DNA of 64,000 bases from an uncultured Chloroflexia bacterium (GTDB lineage Bacteria; Chloroflexota; Anaerolineae; Anaerolineales; UBA4823), in assembly GCA_963793095.1 (NCBI GenBank), contig CAWBYY010000011.1, positions 277,034 through 341,033 of the forward strand, read 5' to 3'. Every line of letters begins with the position of its first letter. The stretch's first letter is position 1. The notes beneath the pieces were generated by a model that saw only the letters and a program-made list of their open reading frames with translations, was not told where the DNA came from and did not search any database. Below, piece after piece: positions 20,146 through 52,721 of the stretch. The translations under genes were made by a program, and so were the position numbers.

Positions 20146-23124
20146 ATGTCTGATAAAGTCATCCGGGTAGTGGGGGCACGCGAGCATAATTTAAAGAATA
20201 TTTCGGTCGAGATACCACGCGATAAGTTTGTGGTCATCACCGGGCTTTCCGGCTCCGGCAAGTCCTCCCTTGCGTTTGATACCATCTTTGCTGAGGGGCA
20301 ACGGCGCTATGTTGAGTCCTTATCGTCTTATGCCCGGCAGTTCCTCGGCCAGATGGAAAAGCCGGATGTGGATTATATTGATGGATTATCGCCGGCAGTC
20401 TCAATCGACCAGAAAGGCACATCTCACAACCCGCGCTCTACAGTCGGCACGGTTACGGAGGTTTATGATTACCTGCGGCTGCTCTACGCCCGAGCCGGCA
20501 TCCCTCACTGCCCTGACTGCGGAAGGGTTGTAACAAAACAATCAGCCCAGGAGATCGTAGACCGGATTGAAGCCCTTCCGGAGGGCGCCCGCCTGTTGAT
20601 TTTGTCCCCGCTGGTGCGCAGCCGTAAAGGCACCCACCAGTCCGTCCTGGAGGAGATCCAGAAAGCTGGTTTTGTGCGGGCCAGGGTGGATGGCAGGGTT
20701 TTTGAACTGGAAGAGGATATCCCGCTGGATCGCTACAAAAACCACACGGTTGAGGCTGTGGTTGACCGCCTGGTTATCCACACTGGTCCGCAGGATGAGG
20801 GGGATGCCAATTCCGCCCGCTCCCGGTTGACCGATTCGATTGAAACAGCCCTGAAATTTGGAGACGGGTATGTAACCATCCACTGGATGAACCCGCCTGT
20901 TGAAAAGGGACAGTTCAACGGGATGCCTGAAGAAGACGGCCAGGCACCGGAGAGAGATGAAACCCAGGGAAAAGACCTGCTGTTTTCAGAGCACCTCGCC
21001 TGCCCGGAGCACGGATCAATATTAACCGAGATCGAACCGCGCACATTCTCTTTCAATACCCCCCACGGCGCCTGTCCGGAGTGCCAGGGCTTGGGTGGGA
21101 TGCTTGAAATCGATCCCGATTTGTTGATCCCGGATAACAGCCTGTCATTTGCGGAAGGCGCGATTGCAGCCACAGAGTGGAGCGGGCCGCGTGAAGAAGG
21201 CGGTTATTACTGGCAGACATTAAACGCGATGGCTGACGAATACGGTATCGACCTAACAAGGCCGGTGCGGCATTTAAAAAATAATGAACTTGACCTGGTT
21301 CTTTACGGCACCAGAGGCAAGCGAATTACAGTCCATTACCGGAACCGGGAGGGGCGCCAGGCGACTTTTCAAACTACATTTGAAGGGGTGATCAGCAATC
21401 TCCAGCGCCGCTATAAGGAGACCAATTCCGAGTATATCCGTGAAAAGCTCTCTGAATTTATGAGCGAGCAGGTCTGTTCAGCTTGTAATGGCTCACGTCT
21501 GCGGAGGGAAGCCCTGTCGGTGACCATTGCAGACAGGAATATCATCGAAGTGACGCGCTGGCCTGTCCTGCGAACTCTGGACTGGGCTAAAAGCCTGAGC
21601 GGGGAAGATTCGCCCCTGAATAACCGCCAGCGCTTGATTGCAGAGCGGGTCTTGAAAGAGATCGTGGACAGGCTCGGGTTCCTGGTGGATGTAGGGTTGG
21701 ATTACCTAACCCTGGACCGCACTGCCGCTTCGCTTTCGGGAGGAGAGGCCCAGCGCATACGCCTGGCGACCCAGATTGGTTCGCGGCTGATGGGGGTATT
21801 GTATGTCCTGGATGAGCCATCCATTGGGCTGCACCCGCGCGATAACAACCGCTTGCTGCGTACCCTGGAGGGCTTGCGCGATCTGGGAAACACGGTCCTG
21901 GTGGTCGAACACGATACGGATACAATCAGGACCTCAGATTGGGTTATTGACCTGGGTCCCCGGGCCGGTGAGCACGGCGGAGAGGTGGTCTGTGAAGGTA
22001 AACTGGATGCAATCCTGGCCTGCGAAGAATCGCTGACCGGCGCATATCTGACCGGTAAATTGAAGGTTCCAATACCTTCAGAGCGGAGGGGCGGCAACGG
22101 AAACCACATCAGCATAATAGGGGCGCGCCAGAACAATTTAAAGAATATCGATGTTGAAATTCCACTCGCAAAGCTGGTCTGCATAACGGGGGTCTCCGGT
22201 TCTGGCAAATCCACCCTGATGGTTGAGATACTTTACAAAGCGCTGGCACGCGCTCTTAACCGGGCCAGAATCCAGCCCGGGGAACATGATTCAATTGAGG
22301 GATTGGAAAATCTGGATAAAGTGATCAATATTGACCAGACGCCGATTGGCCGTACGCCGCGCTCCAATCCCGGCACCTATACCGGTCTGTTTGACCATAT
22401 ACGCAGTTTGTTTGCGGAACTGCCAGAGAGCAAAATCAGGGGATATAAACCGGGCCGGTTTTCATTCAACGTGCACGGCGGGCGCTGCGAGGCCTGCCAG
22501 GGTCAGGGCCAACTGCGGATTGAGATGCAGTTCCTGCCGGATGTGTATGTCCCCTGCGATGTTTGCAAAAGGGCGCGCTTTAACCGTGAGACGCTGCAGG
22601 TCAGGTTTAAGGATTTTAATATCGCCGAGGTTCTTGATATGACCGTCGACAGGGCTCTGGAGGTGTTTGGGGCGTTTCCCAGGATGGTAAGCCGGCTGCA
22701 AACCCTGCAGGACGTTGGCCTCGGGTACATCCGGATCGGCCAACCCGCGCCGACATTATCCGGAGGCGAAGCCCAGCGGGTTAAACTTGCCCGCGAGCTC
22801 TCAAAACGGTCAACCGGCAGGACGCTTTATGTGCTTGACGAGCCATCAGTCGGCCTGCATGCCGCTGATGTGCATAAATTAATCGAGGTGCTGCAGCGAC
22901 TGGTTGAGGGCGGCAACACGGTTTTGATTATCGAGCACAATCTGGATATTATTAAGGTCGCCGATTACCTGATTGATCTTGGACCGGAGGGCGGCGACAG
23001 GGGCGGGGAGGTGGTGGTGCAGGGCACCCCGGAAGAGGTCTGTGAGCGGGACGATTCCTATACCGGTCAGCACCTGCGCCCGTTTATCTGCGATAGGGAT
23101 GTGGTTTTTAACCCGGCAAAGTAA
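20146..23124 (+). CDS. uvrA: Excinuclease ABC subunit A
   Basis: 992 aa. Two ABC ATPase modules ([18 protein letters not shown], two LSGGEAQR signatures) and zinc-finger Cys clusters. Confidence 0.97.
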
Positions 23125-32808: not shown

Positions 32809-34460
32809 TCAGTAAGTCATGGCGCAGCCGTCGGCCCTTGGATCGCTGCCAGCGCAAAGCACCCCGTCTTGCGGATTTCTGAGGATGATCTGTCCCAGGC
32901 CGTATAAGTGAAACAACCCCTCCGACCCGGGCTGGATATCGTGACCTATATCAGAAAGTTTCCGGAAAACTTCAGCAGGCATGCCGCTTTCAAGCGCCAG
33001 CTGCCCTCCCGCTTCTCCGTTAGTAATGCAGAAGCGTGGGCGGTCAAGAGCGGATTGAGGGTCCAGGCCGTCGTCGATCAGCCCGGTGAGCACCTGCACA
33101 TGCCCCTGAGGCTGCATGAACCCGCCCATAACTCCGAAACAGGCGTACAGTTCTTCCTTAGGATCGCCTCTAGTTCTGCCCTCAAGCGGGGTTGTGACCA
33201 GCCCGGGGATGATCGTGTGGTAAGGGCGTTTTCCCGGTTCGAGCGCATTGGGGTGGGCAGGGTCCAGGCTGAAGTTTGCGCCGCGGTTCTGCAGGCTGAA
33301 TCCCCAGCCAGGCGGCACAATGCCGGTGCCGAAGCCCATATAGTTACTGTTGATGAAAGAACAGGCGTTGCCAGCCCCATCCATAACGCTCAGGTATACC
33401 GTATCTGATGAAGCAAAAGGGCTGCCTTTAACCTGGTCAAGGGTGGCTCTTTCCCGGTCGATCAATTTGCGTCTCTGTTCTGCGTAATCTTTTGAAAGCA
33501 GGGCTTCGACCGGCGCCGGATTAAATTCCGGATCGGCGATATACCCGCACGCATCTGCAAAAGCCAGCCGCATTGCCTCAATCTCAAGGTGGAGCCGGGA
33601 GGCGGAAAGCGGTTCAAGCGAACCCAGGTCAAAGCCTTCCAGGATGTTGAGCGCCAGCAGGGCGGCCAGCCCCTGCCCGTTGGGGGGGCATTCCCAGACC
33701 CGCAGCCCGCGGTAGATGGTGCTGATTGGCGTCACCCATGCGCTGCGGTGGGCGCCAAGGTCTTCTTCACTCAGGCAGCCGCCCGCTGTCCGGACCACAT
33801 TCACAACTGCGCGCCCGATCTCCCCGCTGTAAAACCCGTTTTTTCCCTCCCTGGCGATGACTTTGAAGGAGCGCGCCAGGCCGGGGTTTCTGAACAACTG
33901 GCCCGCCTGGGGGGCTTCCCATTGACTGTCAATTCAAGGCCTCCCGGAGCTGTCCGGAGTTGTTTTTCAAACCCTTTTTCCCAGAAGTGGGCGGTCACCG
34001 GCGAGACCGGAAAACCATTTTCAGCCAGGCGGATCGCCGGGCTCAGCACCTCAGCCATGGACAGGGTCCCGAAGCGTTCAACCAGGTCGCACCAGCCGGC
34101 CGGTGCGCCCGGGACTGTGATCGTGTAGGGATGGAATGGTGGCAGTTCCCGGTCCAGGCCTTCCCGGCGCAGGCGCTCTATTGTCAAGCCTTGCGGGGCG
34201 CGACCGGAACCATTGAGGGCGTGGACACTGCCGGAATCGGCCTGATAATAAAGGGCAAAACAATCCCCGCCCAGTCCGGTTGAGGTGGGCTCGGTGACAT
34301 TCAGGGCTGCAGCTGTCGCAACGGCCGCGTCAGCGGCGTTCCCGCCGCCTGACAGGATCTCGAGCCCGGCCGCGACCGCCAGCGGTTGGGAGGTCGCAAC
34401 CATGCCGCGCGTCCCGTAAACCGGTGAACGTGCGCTATTATTCGAGCTATAGGACTTCAA
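32809..34460 (-). CDS. ggt: Gamma-glutamyltransferase, one frame break
   Basis: ORFs 33801..34460 (N-terminal) and 32809..33897 (contains the SDTVYLSV autoprocessing Thr region) are consecutive. The break is at the G6 run 33909-33914. Confidence 0.85.
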
Positions 34461-35516
34461 TTCCAGCGCCTTCGATTACCTCCCCGACAAGCCACAGTTC
34501 CTGCCCTGCCGCTGACCCTGCCTGGAGCATATCATTCAGCCGGTCTGCAGGGACGGAAATCAGCAAACCGCCGCTGGTCTGGGCGTCAAACAGCAGCATC
34601 CTGGAGGGCTCATCAATTTTGGAGGCAAAATCCACATATTCAGCATAATAAAGCCGGTTATCAATGGATCCCCCAGGAAATACCCAATCCTTTGCATACC
34701 CTGCTGCACCGGAAAGAAAGGGGATGCTTTCAAAGTCGAACCGGAACCTGACCCCAGAGGCGGACGCCATTTCATAAGCATGACCCAGCAGGCTGAAACC
34801 GGTGATGTCAGTACCCGAGCGGACTCTAAACCGGCTGGCGAGTTCTGAAGCGGTTTTGTTCAGGCGTTTCATCCAACCAACGGCATTCTCCAGATATTCG
34901 GCTTGAACAATCCCGCGCTTGAGCGCAGTGGAGATCGTCCCGGTGCCGATTGGTTTGCTGAGTACCAGCCTTTCCCCGGGTGCGGCGTTCATTTTTGTAA
35001 TGATTTTGTCCGGTTCGACAAAACCAAGCACGATCAGGCCGTATTTCGGTTCTTTGTCCTGGATTGTGTGACCGCCGGCGAGCACAACGCCGGCCTCCTG
35101 AGCCTTTTCTGCGCCGCCGCGAAAATCTCAGCGCTGATCTCGCCGGGGAGGTCCGGAGGCAGGGCGGCGATATTCAAGGCCAGGAAGGGCTGCCCGCCCA
35201 TGGCGTAAACGTCTGACAAAGCGTTGGCAGCCGCGATCGCGCCGTAGTCATAGGGGTCATCCACAACCGGGGTGAAGAAATCCGTGGTCGCAACCAGGGC
35301 GCGATCGTCGTCGATCCGCCAGACCGCGGCGTCGTCGCTTTCACCCAGGCCGACCAACAAATCGGGGTAGTCTGCAGATTGGTATATCTCTTTCAGCGGG
35401 CGCAGCACCTGCGCCAGAGCTTCAGCGCTCAGTTTCGAAGCTCAACCGGCGCAATCCGAAAGACTGGTCAGGCGGATCATTTTCCCGGAAGGGGATTTGG
35501 TTCCGTTGTCATCCAT
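34447..35516 (-). CDS. selD: Selenide, water dikinase (selenophosphate synthetase); in-frame UGA (Sec) at 35442-35444; one frame break
   Basis: ATG at 35516 gives [38 protein letters not shown].., in frame with track ORF 35034..35408. The UGA aligns with Cys17 of E. coli SelD (GAGCGCK). AIR-synthase-like body. The frame break at the A4 run 35122-35125 joins it to ORF 34447..35085. Confidence 0.8.
35417..35444 (-). other. SECIS-like hairpin starting within the selD UGA
   Basis: Minus strand: U-GAGCUUC-GAAACUGAGCGCU-GAAGCUC, a 7-bp stem with a 13-nt loop. Confidence 0.55.
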
Positions 35517-35595: not shown

Positions 35596-36393
35596 GTGTT
35601 AATATCCCCAATCGTGAAGATTCTGGCATTTTTTGCGCATCCGGATGATGAAACCATGCTCTCTGGGGGAGCGCTTGCGATCCTGGCTCAATCGGGGATA
35701 GAGGTTCATTACTTAATTGCGACAAGAGGCGAAGGGGGCGAGAGAGGCGAACCGCCTCAATGCGAGCCAGAGCAACTCGGGGAACTGCGTGAAAGGGAAG
35801 TTGCCTGCGCGGTTGAGAATCTGGGCGGTAGCAGCCTGGCTAACCTGGGTTATCCCGACCCGGTTGTTGGACCCAGCCAGGAACTGTACCCGTTCACAAC
35901 CGACCTGGCGCGTTTAGCCGCTCAGGTCACCGGCCAGGTAAAAAGGGTGCAGGCGGATGTCTTAATTTCACACGGCACAAACGGCGAGTACGGTCACCCG
36001 GCGCACCTGCTCTGCAATAAGGCCGCTCGCCTGGCGGCCGCCTCCCACAAGGACCATCCTTTCTGGCTGTATACAGTTGCCGCCGCATACCCGGGCCACC
36101 CCAAACCGCGTATCCTGAACCGGTCTGATCCGGCTCACCTTGTAATTAATGTCCGGACGGTTCTATATAGAAAAATTCAGGCTGCCTTGTGCCATAAAAC
36201 CCAGCAGGCTTTATTCATCAGGCGCGCTTCAATCGAGGCGGGGCGCAGGCTGAAAGTGCCGGAAGTTATTTTAAAGGAGGAGAGTTTGCACCGGGCTTAC
36301 CCGGCGAAGGGGGGTGCGGGGGGTGATCCGCTGGAGGAGTTTTTATCAGCCTGGGCAATCCGCCAGCCAATTAACTTTCAATCCAGATCGTAA
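35596..36393 (+). CDS. PIG-L/LmbE-family N-acetylglucosaminyl deacetylase
   Basis: [17 protein letters not shown] zinc-binding motif. The start may be GTG a few codons downstream of 35596. Confidence 0.8.
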
Positions 36394-36808
36394 CAGGCCC
36401 ATCGTTTGCGATTTCGACCAGCATATGAGCGCCAAACTCTCCCGTTCGGGTCGGCACCCCTCTGGACTGCAGCAGAGCTGCAAATTTTTCAACTATTGGT
36501 GCGGCAATCTCAGGCGAGGCGGCGTCGGTAAATGAAGGTCGCCTGCCTTTGCGAGTATCGGCATAAAGCGTAAATTGAGATACAACCAGGGCCTCGCCCC
36601 CAGCATCCAGGATTGAGCGGTTGATTTTGCCAGCCTGGTCTTCGAAAATCCTCAGGTTTGCGATCTTATCAACAAGGTACTTGACCTGTTTGTCATTATC
36701 CGCGGGTCCGACCCCCAGCAGGATAACCAGGCCGGGTCCGATCTCTGCGACAGACCGGCTTGCGACAGTGACCCGCCCCCATAGTACTCGCTGGATTAAT
36801 GCCCGCAT
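36371..36808 (-). CDS. dtd: D-aminoacyl-tRNA deacylase
   Basis: 145 aa: MRALIQRV.., [17 protein letters not shown]. Confidence 0.9.
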
Positions 36809-36867: not shown

Positions 36868-37872
36868 TCAAGATGGTGGCAGGGGCAGGCCGATGGCCTC
36901 TTTCACTTGCCGGATAGTCTCTCTGGCGATCAGGCTGGCCCGTTTCTGTCCGTCGCTGAGAATATCCCACACCAAACCGGGGTCCCGCGCCAGTTCCGCC
37001 CGCTTCTCCCGGAAAGGTCCCAGGTGGGCGTTCAGGCTGCCGGCGAATAAACGTTTGCAGTCAACGCAGCCAATTTCAGCCCGGCGGCATTCAAAGTTTA
37101 TTTTTTCGACTTCAACTTCGGATGTGAAGATCTTATGCATTGAAAAAACGTTGCAAACATCCGGGTCTCCCGGATCAGATCTGCGCTTGCGTTGGGGGTC
37201 TGTAACCATCATCATCACCCTGCGGGTGGTCTCTTCGGGGGTTGCAGCCAGTTCAATGTGATTATCCAGGCTCTTGCTCATTTTTTGCATGCCATCGATG
37301 CCGAGCACTTTGGGTACCTCAGTCGCTTTCATCCGGGGTTCGACCAGTACATTCGTGTTGTAGCGGTGGTGGAACGAGCGAACCACCTCGCGGGCAAACT
37401 CGAGATGGGGAGCCTGGTCGACACCTACCGGCACGGTATCGGCTTTATATAATGCAATGTCAGCCGCCATCAGGACCGGGTATCCAACCAGCCCGTAGTT
37501 AATGTTCTGGGGCTGCATGCGGACCTTATCCTTGAATGTCGGCAGGTCGGTCAACTTGCCAAGCGGTGTGACCATTGAGAAGAAAATATGCAGTTCGGTG
37601 ACTTCCGGAACCTGGGATTGGATGAAGACAATCGTCTCTTCCGGCCGGATGCCAGCTGCCAGCCAGTCGAGAGCCATCTCATACGTGTTCTGGTTAAGAT
37701 CCTCAGTGGTTTTAACGGTTGTCAGGGCGTGAATATCGACAATGCAGTACACACAGTCATATTCATCCTGCAGGGCGACATAATTTTTAATCGCGCCCAG
37801 ATAATTCCCCAGGTGCTGTTTGCCGGTCGGTCTGGCTCCGGAGAACACCCTGCCTTTCTTCTTATTGGTCAT
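36868..37872 (-). CDS. trpS: Tryptophan--tRNA ligase
   Basis: 334 aa with a class I HIGH-like PTGKQHLGNYLGA and KMSKS. Confidence 0.95.
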   Translation of the reverse strand: MTNKKKGRVFSGARPTGKQHLGNYLGAIKNYVALQDEYDCVYCIVDIHALTTVKTTEDLNQNTYEMALDWLAAGIRPEETIVFIQSQVPEVTELHIFFSMVTPLGKLTDLPTFKDKVRMQPQNINYGLVGYPVLMAADIALYKADTVPVGVDQAPHLEFAREVVRSFHHRYNTNVLVEPRMKATEVPKVLGIDGMQKMSKSLDNHIELAATPEETTRRVMMMVTDPQRKRRSDPGDPDVCNVFSMHKIFTSEVEVEKINFECRRAEIGCVDCKRLFAGSLNAHLGPFREKRAELARDPGLVWDILSDGQKRASLIARETIRQVKEAIGLPLPPS

Positions 37873-38120
37873 GCGTGCTCCTTGAGATAATTGCGTACCA
37901 GTTTGTTGATCTCGCCTTTATCAACATGGCGGTTTGTCCCCAGTTTCGAATACAAAAGGTCGCCGTTAACCGAAAATTCAAACCGGCCTCCATCTGAAGG
38001 AACCAGGGTGAACGAGTCTGTTTTGAATTCGAATTCACTCAACACATCGGCCATCACACTGACAGCTCTATCAGTGTAATGTCAAGCAGCGCAGTAGACC
38101 AGTTCAATTTTCATTAACAT
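37869..38120 (-). CDS. SelW/Rdx-family selenoprotein (CxxU), in-frame UGA at 38082-38084
   Basis: ATG at 38120 with AAAGGAG 7 nt upstream gives MLMKIELVYCAA-U-HYTDRAVSVMADVLSEF..GGRFEFSVNGDLLYSK... The track shows only the part after the UGA (37869..38057). The stop overlaps the trpS start (ATGA). Confidence 0.75.
38052..38084 (-). other. SECIS-like hairpin immediately 3' of the selW-like UGA
   Basis: UGA-CAUUACACUGA-UAGAGCUG-UCAGUGUGAUG, an 11-bp stem (one G-U pair) with an 8-nt loop. Confidence 0.65.
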
Positions 38121-38124
38121 GATT

Positions 38125-38472
38125 TTTCTCCTTTAATCGCGGTGTTAAAGAATAAACCCGTCGGTGATGCGACGGGATTTGGAGCCAGCTTCACTACAAA
38201 TTCGGAAGTTATTTGATGTTTTTGGACAGTAAAAATCAATGACCGCGCTTGATAAAGCGCATACAAACTTCCGGTCTGAGCCTGGTAACGGCGGCAATTC
38301 CGGCCCGGGATACTTGCCCATTCCTGGAGAATACGACAGTCAGAAATTGATGGGGGTTCACCCTGCAGCTCAGAGGTCCATTCAACGCTGACGTAAGGGT
38401 GGATCTTTCACCATCGTCCACTCTCTGTACCTCCGTTTCGGCGCTTACTCGTCCTCTTCAAGGCTTTTTTTC
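38125..38472 (-). promoter_or_regulatory. T-box-like leader RNA with Trp (UGG) specifier upstream of selW-like/trpS
   Basis: Minus strand: AGUA (38446-38449), AGAGAG (38421-38426), GGUGAAAG distal-loop-like (38405-38412), GAA-UGG-A specifier-like (UGG 38378-38380), T-box-like AGCUGGCUCC (38181-38190), then a terminator. Confidence 0.55.
38147..38176 (-). terminator. Leader terminator of the T-box-like element
   Basis: CCCGUCG-CAUCAC-CGACGGG followed by UUUAUUCUUU, 27 nt upstream of the selW-like ATG. Confidence 0.7.
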
Positions 38473-38478
38473 GTTGAA

Positions 38479-38507
38479 ATTGTAAGTGTAGTATATCACA
38501 ATATAAA
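38479..38507 (-). promoter_or_regulatory. Candidate promoter for the T-box leader
   Basis: TTTATA, a 17-nt spacer, then TACAAT on the minus strand. Confidence 0.4.
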
Positions 38508-44667: not shown

Positions 44668-46290
44668 TTACAGGGTCGATATCGCTGAAGCGAGGTTGCG
44701 CCTGAATTCCGGCTGGACGAATTTCGCCCAGGCTTCAGGGAAAGTTGACAGCAGCCTGTCGCGTTCTTCAATTTTATATACAAGGTAAGATTCAATACCC
44801 TCCAGGGGTATCCCCTCTTTTTTAATAGCCTTATTACCCAGAAACTTTCCCAGGAGTTCAATCGCGACCTGGGCATCTACCAGATCGCCGAGGTGGTCCT
44901 GCATTTGTTTAAACTGGTCGATTAATTCTTTTGATTCCGGGCCCAGGACCTCCCGGAAGTACTCGACCGTGTAGCGCAATTTCTTAATTTCCAGGCGGAG
45001 CGCGTGGAGAAGGTCTAAGTCAGCATCTTCAATAAAGGGGTCGAATGAGCGCACGACCGCCAGCCGCTCGTAGATCAGAACAGGAGCCAGCTCGGTGACC
45101 GTCCTTGGAAAGGGGATATCCGTTCGCATCTTGCGGACACCCGCCCCAGGCGTCTTGAGAAAGATATTGAATTTGCGCTTGAAGTCAGAGTAGTCTTCGC
45201 TGTCCAGATACTCAAGCATCTCGGCGCGAGCAGACTGGCGCTGGTTGCGCCAGGATTCCAGGAGTGGGTCCAGATCCGATTTTGCCTCATCGGGCAGCGA
45301 ATCCAGGTAAACCTGGGATTTCTCCATAAAAACATCCAGGTCCCTGACACTGCCAAGTTTGCGTCCGGTCGACCTGAGCCCTTTTAAATGGGGTTTTAAG
45401 GAGCCGGGTTTAAAAGCGGTTGCGAATACTTCAAAAGCCGCCCGCAGGCGCCGGGTGGCAACCCGCATATCATGAAGCCCTTCGATGTCTTCCCCTAATC
45501 TTGTGGCTTCTTCGTGGCTGAGCATCGCTGCGAACTGGTAGCTCATAATTTTACGTCCGGCTTCAGCAAGCTGGTCGCCTGATTCGACCCCGGGATTTTC
45601 CATCGGTTTCGGAAAGGGCACCATTTTGGTTGCGGCTTCCTCCACTTCCATCACCTTTATCTTTGGAAAACCGATCTTGAACCACAATCTGGCGCTCTGC
45701 TGGGCTTCTGCTGCATCAGCCGTCGCCTCAGGTCCTTCCACGACTATCCAGATTCCATTTCTGGACGATTCAATATGGATAATGCTTGTGCTCTGGGTGC
45801 CGCAGAAGTTCAAGCCCTCCGCTATACAAAGAAGGGCGCTGATTGTCTGAGCTTCACGCTGTTGAATTGGGGAGAGATTCAGATTATTCAAATCCTTGCG
45901 TTTAACATTCCCCTGCTGGATGGCGATAACCGCAGCGAGCACATTCAATTCATCCCGCGATAGTTCCCGGTCTATATTTTCAGATACAAACAGCTTGATG
46001 TCTTTGAACGGGTTTTTCTTCTTGCCTGGAAGCGGGCTGTCGAATAAAAGGCAGGCATACCCCAGGATTACCCGGGAGCTGTCCTCCAATTCGTGAAGAG
46101 GCCTTGTGCGCTCAAAAAGGGTTAGAGCCTGTTCTTTTATATATTCGTTGTTTGGCGAGCTTGGTATTGTTGGCTCCCGATACACTAATTCCTGAGTTAC
46201 AGCGGATACATCTTCCTGGGGTGCTGAGCTCTCAGGACTTTGGGTAGCCTCTTCAAATTCCTCTTGGGAGTTTATTTTATCTTCATCCAT
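44668..46290 (-). CDS. CHAD-domain protein
   Basis: C-terminal half has CHAD-type helical repeats (HDMRVATRRLRAAFEVF, LGSVRDLDV, LHALRLEIKKLRY). The N-terminal 250 aa are unassigned. Confidence 0.75.
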   Translation of the reverse strand: MDEDKINSQEEFEEATQSPESSAPQEDVSAVTQELVYREPTIPSSPNNEYIKEQALTLFERTRPLHELEDSSRVILGYACLLFDSPLPGKKKNPFKDIKLFVSENIDRELSRDELNVLAAVIAIQQGNVKRKDLNNLNLSPIQQREAQTISALLCIAEGLNFCGTQSTSIIHIESSRNGIWIVVEGPEATADAAEAQQSARLWFKIGFPKIKVMEVEEAATKMVPFPKPMENPGVESGDQLAEAGRKIMSYQFAAMLSHEEATRLGEDIEGLHDMRVATRRLRAAFEVFATAFKPGSLKPHLKGLRSTGRKLGSVRDLDVFMEKSQVYLDSLPDEAKSDLDPLLESWRNQRQSARAEMLEYLDSEDYSDFKRKFNIFLKTPGAGVRKMRTDIPFPRTVTELAPVLIYERLAVVRSFDPFIEDADLDLLHALRLEIKKLRYTVEYFREVLGPESKELIDQFKQMQDHLGDLVDAQVAIELLGKFLGNKAIKKEGIPLEGIESYLVYKIEERDRLLSTFPEAWAKFVQPEFRRNLASAISTL

Positions 46291-46420: not shown

Positions 46421-48574
46421 TCATTCCCCGTAAGTTTTTCTGTGCCAGTCGATCAACCAGGTCTGGACATCCAACGGCGTCTCACCATCTTTCGGATTGA
46501 TAAAGGTGTAAGTCCCATCCGGATTCATACTGCGCACCTTCCGGTTGGCGATAAAGTAAGCGTCCAGCACTTCGGAATGCAGGTAATGAATAAGGCGCGC
46601 ATCCTGGACCGGGAAGAGTACCTCAACCCGGCGGTTGATATTGCGCGGCATCAAGTCCGCGCTGCCCAGGTAAATTTGCGGCTCTCCGCCGTTGCGGAAA
46701 TAATAAATGCGGCTGTGCTCCAGAAAGCGGCCGACCACACTGGTCACCCGAATATTATCGCTAATCCCCCTGACTCCCGGTCTAAGGCAGCAGATGCCGC
46801 GTACGATCAGATCAATTTTTACTCCAGCCTGAGAGGCTGTATAAAGATTGCGGATGATGCGTGGATCCACCAGGGCGTTCATCTTGAAAATCAGGTGCCC
46901 TTCCTCTCCGTTTCTGGTGTGCAGGATCTCGCGTTCGATCAACCATTCCATCTTTTCACGCAGGTTTATCGGGGCGACCAGCAGTTTGCGGTATTCCTGC
47001 TTGGCAGAATAACCGGTGAGGTAGTTGAACAGGTCGGTCGCATCCGCGCCGATGTCCTCGTCACAGGTGAACATGCCAATGTCTTCATAAAGCTGGGCAG
47101 TGATGGCGTTGTAGTTGCCGGTCGCCAAGTGGACATAACGGCGGATATGCTCTCCTTCTTTGCGGATAACCAGGGCGATTTTTGAATGCGTTTTTAATCC
47201 CAGCAACCCGTAAATAACATGGACACCCTCTTTCTCCAGCATCCTGGCCCAGCCGATATTGCTCTCTTCGTCAAAGCGGGCTTTTAACTCGACCAGAACC
47301 GCGACCTGCTTGCCATGCTCGCGCGCTTCCATTAATGTTTTGACGACCGGCGAGTTGCTGCCAACCCGGTAAAGGGTCTGCTTGATCGCCAGCACATTGG
47401 GATCGCGGGAAGCGGTTTTCAGGTAGTCAACAACCGGTTGGAAGGAATGGTAGGGGTGGTGGACCAGGATATCTTCGCGGCGCATCGTCAAAAAAATATT
47501 ACTGTCATGAAGTTCGTGTCTCAAAAGGGGTTGGATTACCTGTTTTAATGGAGGATCCTTTAAATCGTACCGGTCTATTTTGTGCAGGATTATCAAGCCG
47601 CCCAGACCCAGATGGCCATTAAGATTGTAGATATCGTTGCGGTCGATGGCGAGGTTTTCAATCAGGATCTCGCGTACATGGGAGGGCATGGCGTCGTTAA
47701 ATGCAAGGCGCACCACTGAGCCAAATCGCCGCTGGCGGACGCTTTGCTCCATGGTCTCCAGTAAGTCGGAGGCTTCCAGTTCCTGGATAACCATATCCGC
47801 ATCGCGCGTGACCCGGAACGGGTGCGATTCAACGATCTCCATACCCGGAAAGAGTTTTTCCAGGTTTGCAGCGATCAGCTCTTCCAGCCAGATGAAGTAG
47901 TGGTTAAACGGCGTGGTGCCATTTTTTCTAACCGCTCCAGAGGATCTTTTTATGGGAATCAGGCGCGGCAGGCTGGTCGGCATTTTTATCCGGGCGAAAT
48001 GTTCCTGCCCGGATTCATCCCGGATCACAACCGCCAGGTTTAAACTGAGATTGGATATATGCGGAAATGGGTGACCCGGATCAAAGGCAAGAGGGGTCAG
48101 GACAGGAAAAATGACCTCCTCAAAATAAGTATCGACATTTTCCCTCTGGCGGCTGCTCAGCGCATCATAGTCCAGCAGGTGGATCCCGTTTTCATCGAGC
48201 TGCGGGATGAGTTTTTCCTGCAGACATACTCTGGCTTCAATCATCAAGTCCAGCGCAACCCTGCGGATTTCAGCCAGCTGTTGTGCTGGAGTCATCCCGT
48301 CAGCCGGGACGTCGATAACACCGGCCGCAATCTGCTTTTTTAACCCGGCCACCCGGACCATAAAGAATTCATCCAGGTTGGATCCCAGAATTGAAATGAA
48401 CTTCACTCTCTCCAGCAGAGAGTTGCTCTCATCCTGGGCTTCCTGCAGCACCCGGCGCTGGAATTCGAGCAGTCCCAGCTCGCGGTTCACATAAAGCTGG
48501 GGGTCCATCAGGTCTGGCAAGTCGCTGGTCTCAATTTGATCAACAGTTATTTCGCTCATGCGTGCTTCCAACAA
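46421..48574 (-). CDS. ppk: Polyphosphate kinase 1
   Basis: 717 aa with the PPK1 N/H/C1/C2 layout (NLDEFFMVR, THSKIALV). The start may be the ATG at 48559. Confidence 0.95.
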   Translation of the reverse strand: MLEARMSEITVDQIETSDLPDLMDPQLYVNRELGLLEFQRRVLQEAQDESNSLLERVKFISILGSNLDEFFMVRVAGLKKQIAAGVIDVPADGMTPAQQLAEIRRVALDLMIEARVCLQEKLIPQLDENGIHLLDYDALSSRQRENVDTYFEEVIFPVLTPLAFDPGHPFPHISNLSLNLAVVIRDESGQEHFARIKMPTSLPRLIPIKRSSGAVRKNGTTPFNHYFIWLEELIAANLEKLFPGMEIVESHPFRVTRDADMVIQELEASDLLETMEQSVRQRRFGSVVRLAFNDAMPSHVREILIENLAIDRNDIYNLNGHLGLGGLIILHKIDRYDLKDPPLKQVIQPLLRHELHDSNIFLTMRREDILVHHPYHSFQPVVDYLKTASRDPNVLAIKQTLYRVGSNSPVVKTLMEAREHGKQVAVLVELKARFDEESNIGWARMLEKEGVHVIYGLLGLKTHSKIALVIRKEGEHIRRYVHLATGNYNAITAQLYEDIGMFTCDEDIGADATDLFNYLTGYSAKQEYRKLLVAPINLREKMEWLIEREILHTRNGEEGHLIFKMNALVDPRIIRNLYTASQAGVKIDLIVRGICCLRPGVRGISDNIRVTSVVGRFLEHSRIYYFRNGGEPQIYLGSADLMPRNINRRVEVLFPVQDARLIHYLHSEVLDAYFIANRKVRSMNPDGTYTFINPKDGETPLDVQTWLIDWHRKTYGE

Positions 48575-51370: not shown

Positions 51371-52654
51371 TTAATTCGAAGGGCCTTCTTCGGCTTCCTG
51401 TAATTTTTCTTCGACCATCTCGCGCAGCTCTGCGAGGTCGTGCAGGACCTCGTATGCGCCGTGCCACTGCGAATAATCCGGGCCCTGCATCCAGACCCCG
51501 AATTTGGCGGTGCGCCCCCAGTGGTGCCACAGGTTGAAGAAGGTGAAGTCTATCGTCTCATCGAAGGGCTCGGAAGTCAGCAGCCCCTGGTCCCTCAGAG
51601 GCTGGATGATATCCTGGCTCTCCACCACCCATTCGTTAACCCTTTCAGTGGCTTTATCAGCTGCCGGGTAGAAGTCATCAATAAAGGTTTGTGAGTGGCA
51701 TTCCAGGCATACTCCCTGCATGCGGACTTTGTTGTCCTGCCAGGCTGGTCTGCGGGTGCTTACCGGAGCAAAAAGGTACCAGGTCAGCCGGTCGCCGATG
51801 TCGTGAGATGTACCGCTTGTGCCAAATCCGCTCATATGGCAGATTGCGCAGGTGGGGGCCGGGAAGTCCTCGACAGTCAGAGTGCCAGGTTCCGCCTCCC
51901 AGTTCCAGGTATATCCCATGGTATTGTAGGCAATTCCGTGAGGGGACTCGATATATATCTCGTACTGCGGGTGGTCGGGGCCGATATGGCAGTAGTTGCA
52001 GGTTTCCGGCTTTCGGGCCTGTTCCAGGCTGAATTCATGCCTGAGATGGCACATCTGGCACTGGCCGGGAGAACCATCCACCCCGGGTTTACCTATATCG
52101 TGGCAGGCCTCGCAGGTGAAGCGGGTCATCGCTTCGCCTTCAAGCCTGTGAATGTCGTTGCGGGATTTATCCGGCGAATAGCTTCCTTCCGGTATGGCTT
52201 CGTACATTGCAAGCAGCTCCGGGGACAGGTCTTCGGAGCCTGCATAGGCTACATAAGCCGGTATGCTGTGACGGCTCTGGTGGAATTGGGCCACTTCAGC
52301 AGCGTGGCATTTCTGGCACATTGTGGTTGTGGGCGAATTCAGGACGTGGGTGCCCTCGTGTTCAATCGCGCCGGGGTAGTCCGCCGCCACTTCGTGGCAG
52401 TCCTGGCAGGCAACCTCGGCAGCCGCCATTGAACTGTGGCTGTACTGTTCGATAATGCCCGGTGAGGTTTTGCGGTGGCAGATAACGCATTCGTTATCGC
52501 TGTTGGCGAGCACATCAATTTCTTCAGTCTCGACCGGCGTGCCTGCCCTCCCGATCGCCATGATGATCAAAGCTGCTCCCAGCACAACAATCACCGCAAC
52601 CAGTCCGATTATGAGCGCTTTTAAAAATCCTCTGCTGTCCGAACCTTCACTCAT
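51371..52654 (-). CDS. Octaheme c-type cytochrome, hydroxylamine-oxidoreductase (HAO)-family-like, N-terminal membrane anchor
   Basis: Eight CxxCH motifs (CVICH, CQDCH, CQKCH, CEACH, CQMCH, CNYCH, CAICH, CLECH), an N-terminal TM helix and an HAO-like C-terminal helical region (FFNLWHHWGRTAKFG). ATG at 52654 after GGAG. Confidence 0.8.
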   Translation of the reverse strand: MSEGSDSRGFLKALIIGLVAVIVVLGAALIIMAIGRAGTPVETEEIDVLANSDNECVICHRKTSPGIIEQYSHSSMAAAEVACQDCHEVAADYPGAIEHEGTHVLNSPTTTMCQKCHAAEVAQFHQSRHSIPAYVAYAGSEDLSPELLAMYEAIPEGSYSPDKSRNDIHRLEGEAMTRFTCEACHDIGKPGVDGSPGQCQMCHLRHEFSLEQARKPETCNYCHIGPDHPQYEIYIESPHGIAYNTMGYTWNWEAEPGTLTVEDFPAPTCAICHMSGFGTSGTSHDIGDRLTWYLFAPVSTRRPAWQDNKVRMQGVCLECHSQTFIDDFYPAADKATERVNEWVVESQDIIQPLRDQGLLTSEPFDETIDFTFFNLWHHWGRTAKFGVWMQGPDYSQWHGAYEVLHDLAELREMVEEKLQEAEEGPSN

Positions 52655-52721
52655 TTTGGATTCTCCAAACAATTGTATTAATGTTTTCCCAGTATTCCCC
52701 TAATATTATTTTAATGCTTCT

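Follow-up and report, generated by a model that had tools for sequence, protein, structure and literature searches.

SelW/Rdx proteins are widespread, have a presumed redox role and lack a defined function. The locus described here raises the question whether a gene of this family, cut short for open reading frame (ORF) callers by an in-frame TGA, lies directly upstream of trpS, and what its linkage to a tryptophanyl-tRNA synthetase (TrpRS) could mean. It is found on a 64,000-nt stretch of the genome of an uncultured Chloroflexia bacterium (GenBank assembly GCA_963793095.1, contig CAWBYY010000011.1, positions 277,034 to 341,033), which is called the window throughout and to which all coordinates refer. 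An earlier note, made from this sequence, had proposed that a 62-aa ORF (37869..38057, minus strand) continues upstream in the same frame through a TGA at 38084..38082 to an ATG at 38120, thereby encoding a CxxU selenoprotein of the SelW/Rdx type; the ORF and its upstream extension are present, and every sequence feature described in that note was found again at its position. We conclude that the window very probably encodes an 83-residue Rdx/SelW-like selenoprotein with a Cys10-x-x-Sec13 motif (Sec, selenocysteine) as the first cistron of a T-box-led rdx-trpS-dtd operon.

The rdx reading frame and its in-frame TGA

The rdx frame opens with ATG 38120..38118, contains a single in-frame TGA (38084..38082) and ends at the TGA stop 37871..37869; an AAAGGAG sequence does precede the ATG by 7 nt (38134..38128), as the earlier note had reported. 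Read-through translation yields MLMKIELVYCAA-U-HYTDRAVSVMADVL...KEHA, with the stop following KEHA. When U was written as C, the 83-aa product matched the Pfam Rdx model PF10262 over its whole length (positions 1-74/74, 55.3 bits, E 7.6e-15, cut-off 22.6), and the 62-aa ORF alone gave a partial match (profile positions 22-74, 33.8 bits). That the match becomes full length because the 21 upstream codons are included is more than chance. NCBIfam TIGR02174 (CXXU_selWTH) was likewise matched from end to end (1-74/74, 40.8 bits, cut-off 34.2), so that two family models support the SelW/Rdx assignment, and the protein is not the Campylobacter equivalog NF041051 (60.2 bits against a cut-off of 88). 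The C10-A-A-U13 motif aligns with C-T-Q-C of 2FA8 and C-R-Q-C of 2P0G. The fold was modelled with AlphaFold2 (AF2) on the homologue P0002, which is 68% identical to the window protein; the model has a predicted local distance difference test score (pLDDT) of 95.6, with strand beta-1 at residues 3-10 and a helix from residue 16, and its top Foldseek matches were 2OBK, 2FA8, 2P0G, 3DEX, 2OJL and 2OKA (template modelling score 0.86-0.90, root-mean-square deviation 1.1-1.8 A), with MIEN1, mouse SelW and thioredoxins in the next ranks. As modelled, the rdx product is an Rdx/SelW-like protein with a predicted thioredoxin-like beta-alpha-beta-beta-beta-alpha fold, the CxxU motif standing at the end of beta-1 before helix alpha-1.

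In its approximately 80 residues, thioredoxin-like fold and N-terminal CxxU it resembles the bacterial SelW-like/Rdx proteins (PF10262, TIGR02174), a selenoprotein family long known (PMC1088965, PMC1794560), with which it also shares an in-frame UGA, a small hairpin with a loop G just behind it, and the scarcity of Cys homologues in Sec-using bacteria (PMC1794560). It differs in that solved CxxC Rdx proteins have C-x-x-C-N-W whereas the Anaerolineae subfamily has U-H-Y, with Tyr for Trp. Trp is missing altogether from this subfamily in 87/88 loci; such a near-absence is noteworthy in a protein that would be induced at low tRNA-Trp charging (see below), and shared ancestry may explain it.

A genome scan with one genome per species returned 479 relatives, the best 80 of which, all Anaerolineae (Chloroflexota), provide the conservation counts given here. 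The U codon is TGA in 80/80 of these genomes and in 6/7 metagenome loci, and the true rdx stops are divided among TGA (39), TAA (26) and TAG (15). The 12 codons 5' of the UGA are conserved as protein in 86 loci (M..[IL]x[LIV]xYCAx), and the commonest start in relatives lies 9 codons before Cys10, as in the window. These observations bear on the alternative that the UGA is a genuine stop separating a 12-residue leader peptide from a distinct 61-62-aa Rdx-like protein, which is what gene callers and public annotations give (61-aa entries) and for which the window offers GTG 38057 and ATG 38054 as possible later starts. We regard this alternative as very improbable, because the truncated form would be deprived of strand beta-1 and of the whole redox motif, the upstream codons are conserved as protein, the interrupting codon is TGA throughout, with no case of TAA or TAG, and a covarying hairpin follows the UGA. 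Furthermore, only 33/80 genomes have a Met codon anywhere from the UGA to the PSDGG motif, and 47/80 have none, so homologues in relatives do not begin there.

Close matches in protein databases were either fragments of about 61 aa starting after the UGA or proteins of 80-83 aa with W, once G, at the U position. The fragments measure 55-62 aa, the 61-aa entries being named 'selenoprotein W-related' or 'Rdx family protein'. Among the matches listed, the contigs behind the W-carrying entries are no longer than about 1.3 kb, and in the one case checked in DNA (P0003, locus L088) the codon is TGA; the W-bearing entries are probably gene calls made with genetic code 4. Public entries with W at the Sec position (P0002, P0003, P0007, P0010 and others) could pass for real Trp variants. 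Decoding of the UGA as Trp or Gly (code 4 or 25), an idea raised at first by the W and G of database homologues, was rejected, TGA being an ordinary rdx stop in 39/80 genomes and the W entries coming from short contigs. The earlier note had considered that Cys homologues (CxxC) might occupy the same position; none was found at the rdx locus among the best 80 of the 479 genome relatives, and full-length database homologues carry W or G. A true GGA (Gly) codon replaces the Sec codon on one 664-nt metagenome contig (L087:124-186, CAAGHY, followed by a trpS-like gene), where the Gly form is presumably a redox-dead or differently functioning variant. Family models, fold, upstream peptide and invariant TGA agree that a CxxU gene has been shortened by ORF callers, and on this comparative evidence the candidate selenoprotein gene is real and misannotated.

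Hairpins downstream of the UGA and the selD gene

The nearest known elements are the bacterial Sec insertion sequence (SECIS) elements of the E. coli fdhF type. Pairing downstream of the rdx UGA was examined in an ungapped alignment of 79 distinct sequences, with 500 shuffles as control. A hairpin formed by alignment columns 28-34 with 38-44 has 88.8% of its cells paired, against 18-55% for slid partners, and shows compensatory changes in 5/7 pairs (65 cells), values that 0/500 shuffles reached; RNAalifold independently recovered the same 7-bp helix. Its first loop base, a G (column 35) located 25 nt from the U of the UGA, is invariant in the 79 sequences. Like bacterial SECIS elements in general (PMC1088965), it is a coding-sequence stem-loop just 3' of the UGA with a small apical loop and a conserved G; compared to the fdhF type, it consists of only 7 bp and a triloop, and no bulged U was identified. 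In the window it corresponds to 38066..38050, which is most probably the element that SelB would use.

Most unpaired cells of this hairpin belong to one subclade (L025, L043, L054, L056, L060, L062, L066, L071, L073, L074, L076, L080, L085 and L086) in which the hairpin has moved about 4 nt upstream (CCGGGC-CGUGA-GCCUGG), to about +14..+30 after the UGA, with GU still in the loop and the protein changed from AVSL to AVSLA/E; the shifted form is best read as a putative case of SECIS turnover within coding sequence. Additionally, the need for SECIS pairing seems to impose covariation on the Rdx protein itself: in alignment columns 30-33 and 39-42 (window 38064..38052), Val (GUC) goes together with Thr (ACA) or Ala (GCA), Ile (AUC) goes together with Met (AUG), and the Ala codon GCC goes together with the Ala codon GCG.

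The earlier note had put forward another hairpin, at 38081..38052, as a strong SECIS candidate. It is present and folds as described, its 11 Watson-Crick/GU pairs being extended by another 2 that close a GAGC loop (-17.5 kcal/mol), and is only weakly unusual relative to shuffled sequences (z = -1.83; 10/200 fold as well). Its conservation is limited to the species-level clade of the window: the window and L001-L007 alone have it intact, and it is gone already in the next relative, L008. Across the 79 sequences 62.6% of its cells are paired, a value attained by 33/500 shuffles, and its covariation by 85/500, which is no better than shuffles. The proposal that this hairpin is the SECIS is probably wrong, the covarying element being the overlapping and mutually exclusive 38066..38050. 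The clade of the window has evolved a competing 13-bp hairpin, a further difference from known bacterial SECIS elements.

That the organism uses Sec is supported by selD, the gene for selenophosphate synthetase, which has its own in-frame Sec-TGA at the catalytic position (...SDCAG-U-ASKL); CAG*ASKL is found in all 11 relatives in which selD is visible. In 12/12 loci (the window and loci from L007 to L081), the sequence GGCGCAG-GUN-CUGCGCC stands at +29..+45 from the selD UGA. This design of 7 bp and a GUN triloop, common to rdx and selD, is expected if one SelB reads both, and we infer that Sec would be inserted at the rdx UGA.

The candidate T-box leader and the rdx-trpS-dtd gene order

The earlier note was right that rdx lies immediately upstream of trpS, an adjacency that recurs in 68/80 related genomes, and overlooked a T-box(Trp) leader, the dtd gene and the Fe-S type of the TrpRS, all of which change the reading of the linkage. 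The leader takes up the 436-nt region that precedes rdx. RF00230 matches 38470..38196 over the entire model (1-219/219) with 61.1 bits (E 9.1e-13), below its gathering score; Rfam run at gathering thresholds on the whole window gave nothing, and it took a permissive search of the leader to bring out the T-box. Homologous leaders occupy the same position in 30/80 genomes, and the six that were tested match RF00230 at 48-63 bits. The sequence GUGA[AG][AG]CUGGC is present in 29/30 distinct leaders (L022 has GUGGAGCUGGC), UGGC is kept in 30/30, and the terminator is conserved in relatives with some compensatory changes. Leaders were found in 30/68 loci with linked trpS versus 0/12 loci without it; the UGG specifier fits the downstream trpS, which stands 3' of every one of the 30 leaders. 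By predicted pairing, the terminator loop UCAC can engage GUGA of the T-box motif as an antiterminator alternative. A profile-iterated nhmmer search detected no further T-box copies, and Rfam detected neither a T-box nor any other leader at six leaderless loci, including Thermanaerothrix daxensis and the three with a divergent TrpRS described below. The promoter-like site upstream has its position relative to the leader start as sole support beyond its 9/12 consensus match.

T-boxes, which operate through UGGN:NCCA pairing (PMC2494555), are documented in Chloroflexi (PMC2494555, PMC3766115). The window leader shares with known T-box leaders of aminoacyl-tRNA synthetase genes (RF00230) the Stem I AGAGA and GGUGAAA sequences, a matching specifier, UGGN and a terminator before the first gene; it differs in that the first gene which it would regulate encodes a selenoprotein and not a synthetase, and in its diverging 3' half, consistent with scores of 48-63 bits. 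Where the T-box is missing (L011, L014, L021, L023, L048, L075 and others), a conserved sequence resembling an extended -10 box, TGTTATACT or TGTTATAAT, stands 40-90 nt before rdx, which suggests that a simple promoter replaces the riboswitch in these lineages.

Downstream of rdx, the order of the genes is maintained across the 80 genomes, with trpS following in 68/80 and dtd, encoding D-aminoacyl-tRNA deacylase (DTD), further downstream in 70/80; in the 12 genomes devoid of trpS at the locus, dtd directly follows rdx. The flanking genes vary far more, memo being present in 30 of the 80, cnnm in 27, priA in 26, pigL in 17, selD in 11 and gerE in 2. The rdx stop and the trpS start overlap in the window (TGA 37871..37869, ATG 37872..37870), as the earlier note had observed. 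This ATGA overlap recurs in 27/68 loci, among them that of the cultured relative T. daxensis GNS-1 (L034); a 1-nt overlap occurs in 3 loci and a gap of 0-30 nt in 20, so that the two genes overlap or nearly abut (up to 30 nt) in 50/67 measurable cases. An AGGAG-type motif within the 3' end of rdx precedes trpS in nearly all relatives. Co-transcription of rdx and trpS is therefore likely as judged from gene spacing. The case for the translational coupling that the earlier note had proposed is weaker: trpS has its own Shine-Dalgarno sequence and only part of the genomes show the overlap, so that such coupling is unlikely to be obligatory.

Iron-sulfur TrpRS enzymes are a rare type, and the role of their cluster is not known. 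The window TrpRS aligns end to end with Thermotoga maritima TrpRS (2G36), with all four cluster-ligand Cys aligned, and the four-Cys motif is present in 68/71 complete trpS genes adjoining rdx. The two enzymes have the four ligand Cys in the anticodon-binding domain in common; the first spacing is x21 in the window and x22 in the [4Fe-4S] motif C-x22-C-x6-C-x2-C of the T. maritima enzyme (PDB 2G36; PMC2954223), and the cluster is a prediction here. Three loci (L044, L064 and L067) have an rdx gene with a 2-residue insertion, followed by a TrpRS of about 40% identity that lacks the four-Cys motif and then by dtd, which may reflect displacement of trpS in situ within the operon. These loci weaken the case for a strict link of Rdx to the Fe-S motif; that the divergent TrpRS still stands directly after rdx suggests selection on the adjacency and speaks against a strict tie to the cluster.

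The following sequence of events would account for this arrangement. Transcription would start from the promoter-like site at about 38507..38479 and proceed into the T-box leader, where uncharged tRNA-Trp, by pairing with the specifier (UGG) and the bulge (UGGC), would prevent termination at 38176..38147. Translation of rdx would begin at ATG 38120 and the UGA at 38084..38082 would be read as Sec, SelB with Sec-tRNA(Sec) being recruited by a small in-frame hairpin, most probably 38066..38050. Termination of rdx at the ATGA would abut initiation of trpS, for which the ribosome could also use the gene's own Shine-Dalgarno sequence, and the Fe-S-type TrpRS and DTD would be made from the same mRNA as rdx. 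With three genes on one T-box-led transcript, selenoprotein, TrpRS and DTD would be induced together when charging of tRNA-Trp falls. The features are collected in the table.

Features of the rdx-trpS-dtd locus and of selD (window coordinates; L001 is one of the related loci)
Feature	Position	Strand	Basis or remark
Promoter-like TTTATA-17-TACAAT	38479..38507	-	Consensus scan 9/12; weak, ends about 9 nt before the leader
Candidate T-box leader with intrinsic terminator	38147..38470	-	Rfam RF00230 and homologous leaders
Specifier codon UGG (Trp), context GAA-UGG-A	38378..38380	-	GAAUGG invariant in 30 leaders
T-box motif GUGAAGCUGGC	38184..38194	-	Contains UGGC (38187..38184), which would pair with tRNA NCCA
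Intrinsic terminator CCCGUCG-CAUCAC-CGACGGG, then UUUAUUCUUU	38147..38176	-	Ends 27 nt before the rdx start
Shine-Dalgarno AAAGGAG of rdx	38128..38134	-	Sequence; 7 nt 5' of the ATG
rdx/selW-like selenoprotein coding sequence	37869..38120	-	83 codons including Sec13
Redox motif C10-A-A-U13	38082..38093	-	TGC 38093..38091 and Sec-TGA 38084..38082
Clade-specific hairpin, GAGC loop	38052..38081	-	13 bp including G.U; excludes the conserved hairpin
Family-conserved bacterial SECIS candidate GCUGUCA-GUG-UGAUGGC	38050..38066	-	7 bp and GUN triloop; covariation
Shine-Dalgarno AAGGAG of trpS	37878..37883	-	Inside the last rdx codons (..LKEHA)
trpS, class I tryptophanyl-tRNA synthetase	36868..37872	-	phmmer to 2G36, E 1.7e-74
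TrpRS Cys240/262/269/272 codons	37155..37153, 37089..37087, 37068..37066, 37059..37057	-	C-x21-C-x6-C-x2-C
dtd, D-aminoacyl-tRNA deacylase, third operon gene	36371..36808	-	Pfam Tyr_Deacylase on the L001 orthologue
selD (selenophosphate synthetase)	34447..35516	-	Sec-TGA 35444..35442; about 2.4 kb from rdx, downstream
selD hairpin GGCGCAG-GUG-CUGCGCC	35399..35415	-	7 bp and GUN triloop

Elsewhere in the window, a Pfam scan of ten large ORFs identified UvrA (20146..23124), polyphosphate kinase (46421..48574, minus strand), the adjoining CHAD-domain protein (44668..46290, minus strand), an M32 peptidase, radical-SAM proteins, a multihaem cytochrome (51371..52672) and a GerE regulator; the polyphosphate kinase, CHAD, UvrA and cytochrome genes look like an ordinary housekeeping context. 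One related locus also carries a cspA thermoregulator RNA (L054:8585-8962, plus strand), located some kb 3' of the operon; it is full length and, with 94.7 bits, exceeds the gathering score of RF01766.

Alternative readings of the locus and their consequences

Several observations weigh against the interpretation of the locus as a selenoprotein gene heading a T-box-led operon. Sec insertion is a prediction from sequence alone, and neither the 64-kb window nor the related loci that were fetched yielded selA, selB or tRNA-Sec: the Pfam scan of the ten large window ORFs contained neither selA nor selB, and ARAGORN, run on the window and on 60 related loci, returned no tRNA of any kind in the former and neither tRNA-Sec nor tRNA-Trp in the latter. 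Compared with L007, the selD gene of the window lacks 1 nt near 35120, which leaves ORFs 35408..35034 and 35085..34447; this deletion would disable Sec synthesis if real and not a sequencing error. The RF00230 score lies below the gathering score of 93, with the shortfall in the 3' half of the model, and the antiterminator fold of the candidate T-box is a proposal from its sequence. All related loci come from one class, and the conservation counts are not phylogenetically independent. Finally, the conserved hairpin is weak in the window (-6.2 kcal/mol, two G.U pairs) and has to compete with the far more stable clade-specific one. As to selD, the neighbouring gamma-glutamyltranspeptidase gene (32809..34460, minus strand) is also split, into 33801..34460 and 32809..33897, and is a single 531-aa gene in L001. 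Two frameshifts so close together, within 3 kb, point to indel errors in the assembly, to which we assign both splits by assumption, the alternative being a very recent pseudogenisation of selD.

The competition between hairpins raises the possibility that the functional SECIS of this clade is the long hairpin 38081..38052, having replaced the ancestral small one. It is the minimum-free-energy structure (-17.5 against -6.2 kcal/mol), begins right after the UGA, has a loop that opens with a G, 16 nt from the UGA, and is identical in the window and in the 90%-related L001-L007. Its absence from L008 and all other relatives, with pairing no better than in shuffles, makes this replacement unlikely in our view; the same SelB must read selD, whose conserved 7-bp hairpin with its GUN triloop resembles the small and not the long hairpin, and the small hairpin can still form in the window, where the two changed positions give G.U pairs and not mismatches.

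The linkage of rdx to trpS might also have no functional meaning, an ancestral Anaerolineae gene order being retained by inertia with the T-box serving trpS and rdx as passenger. This explanation is a serious one, which we place a little short of an even chance. Besides the restriction of the 80 loci to one class, it agrees with the 12/80 genomes in which the locus has lost trpS and kept rdx-dtd, with the confinement of the T-box to loci that have trpS, which is what a leader serving that gene would show, and with the separate Shine-Dalgarno sequence of trpS; moreover, any biochemical rationale for the linkage is hypothetical. It accounts less readily for a three-gene core whose conservation far exceeds that of any flanking gene, for the overlapping or near-abutting genes in most measurable cases and for the position of rdx, always between the promoter or T-box and trpS and so necessarily co-regulated, nor does it easily explain why L044, L064 and L067 keep their divergent TrpRS directly after rdx. 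A functional explanation, the most attractive one although we consider it distinctly unlikely in this specific form, would make the CxxU protein a dedicated redox partner of TrpRS: damage to the oxygen-sensitive [4Fe-4S] TrpRS would lead to uncharged tRNA-Trp, the T-box would switch on and the co-induced Rdx would re-reduce the four Cys, enzyme and repair factor thus responding to the same fall in charging. Rdx may otherwise restore TrpRS in some different way, and DTD would clear mis-charged tRNA.

SECIS, T-box and Fe-S TrpRS motif are each of known kinds, and only the operon context appears new. The selenoprotein surveys PMC1088965 and PMC1794560 make no mention of an rdx-trpS-dtd operon, and the T. 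maritima TrpRS paper (PMC2954223) names no Rdx or selenoprotein neighbour and does not mention an operon or neighbouring genes. A literature search, the coverage of which left out most subscription-journal papers, found no report of SelW/Rdx with trpS, a T-box, Anaerolineae or Chloroflexi. A selenoprotein as first gene of a class-wide rdx-trpS-dtd operon under putative T-box(Trp) control thus appears undescribed as far as we found.

The immediate consequence concerns annotation, rdx being systematically misannotated in databases as 55-62-aa fragments or with a W where Sec belongs; a simple repair rule across Anaerolineae follows from combining the conserved TGA with the 7-bp/GUN hairpin. Were the linkage merely historical, the finding would reduce to an ordinary missed selenoprotein. 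Otherwise, an operon with TrpRS and D-aminoacyl-tRNA deacylase across the class offers a testable lead to a SelW/Rdx substrate, all the stronger because this TrpRS is of the rare iron-sulfur type whose cluster has no known role. If Rdx should indeed prove to be the redox partner of TrpRS, this would be the first defined physiological substrate for a protein of the SelW/Rdx family and the first selenoprotein under the control of a tRNA-sensing riboswitch.

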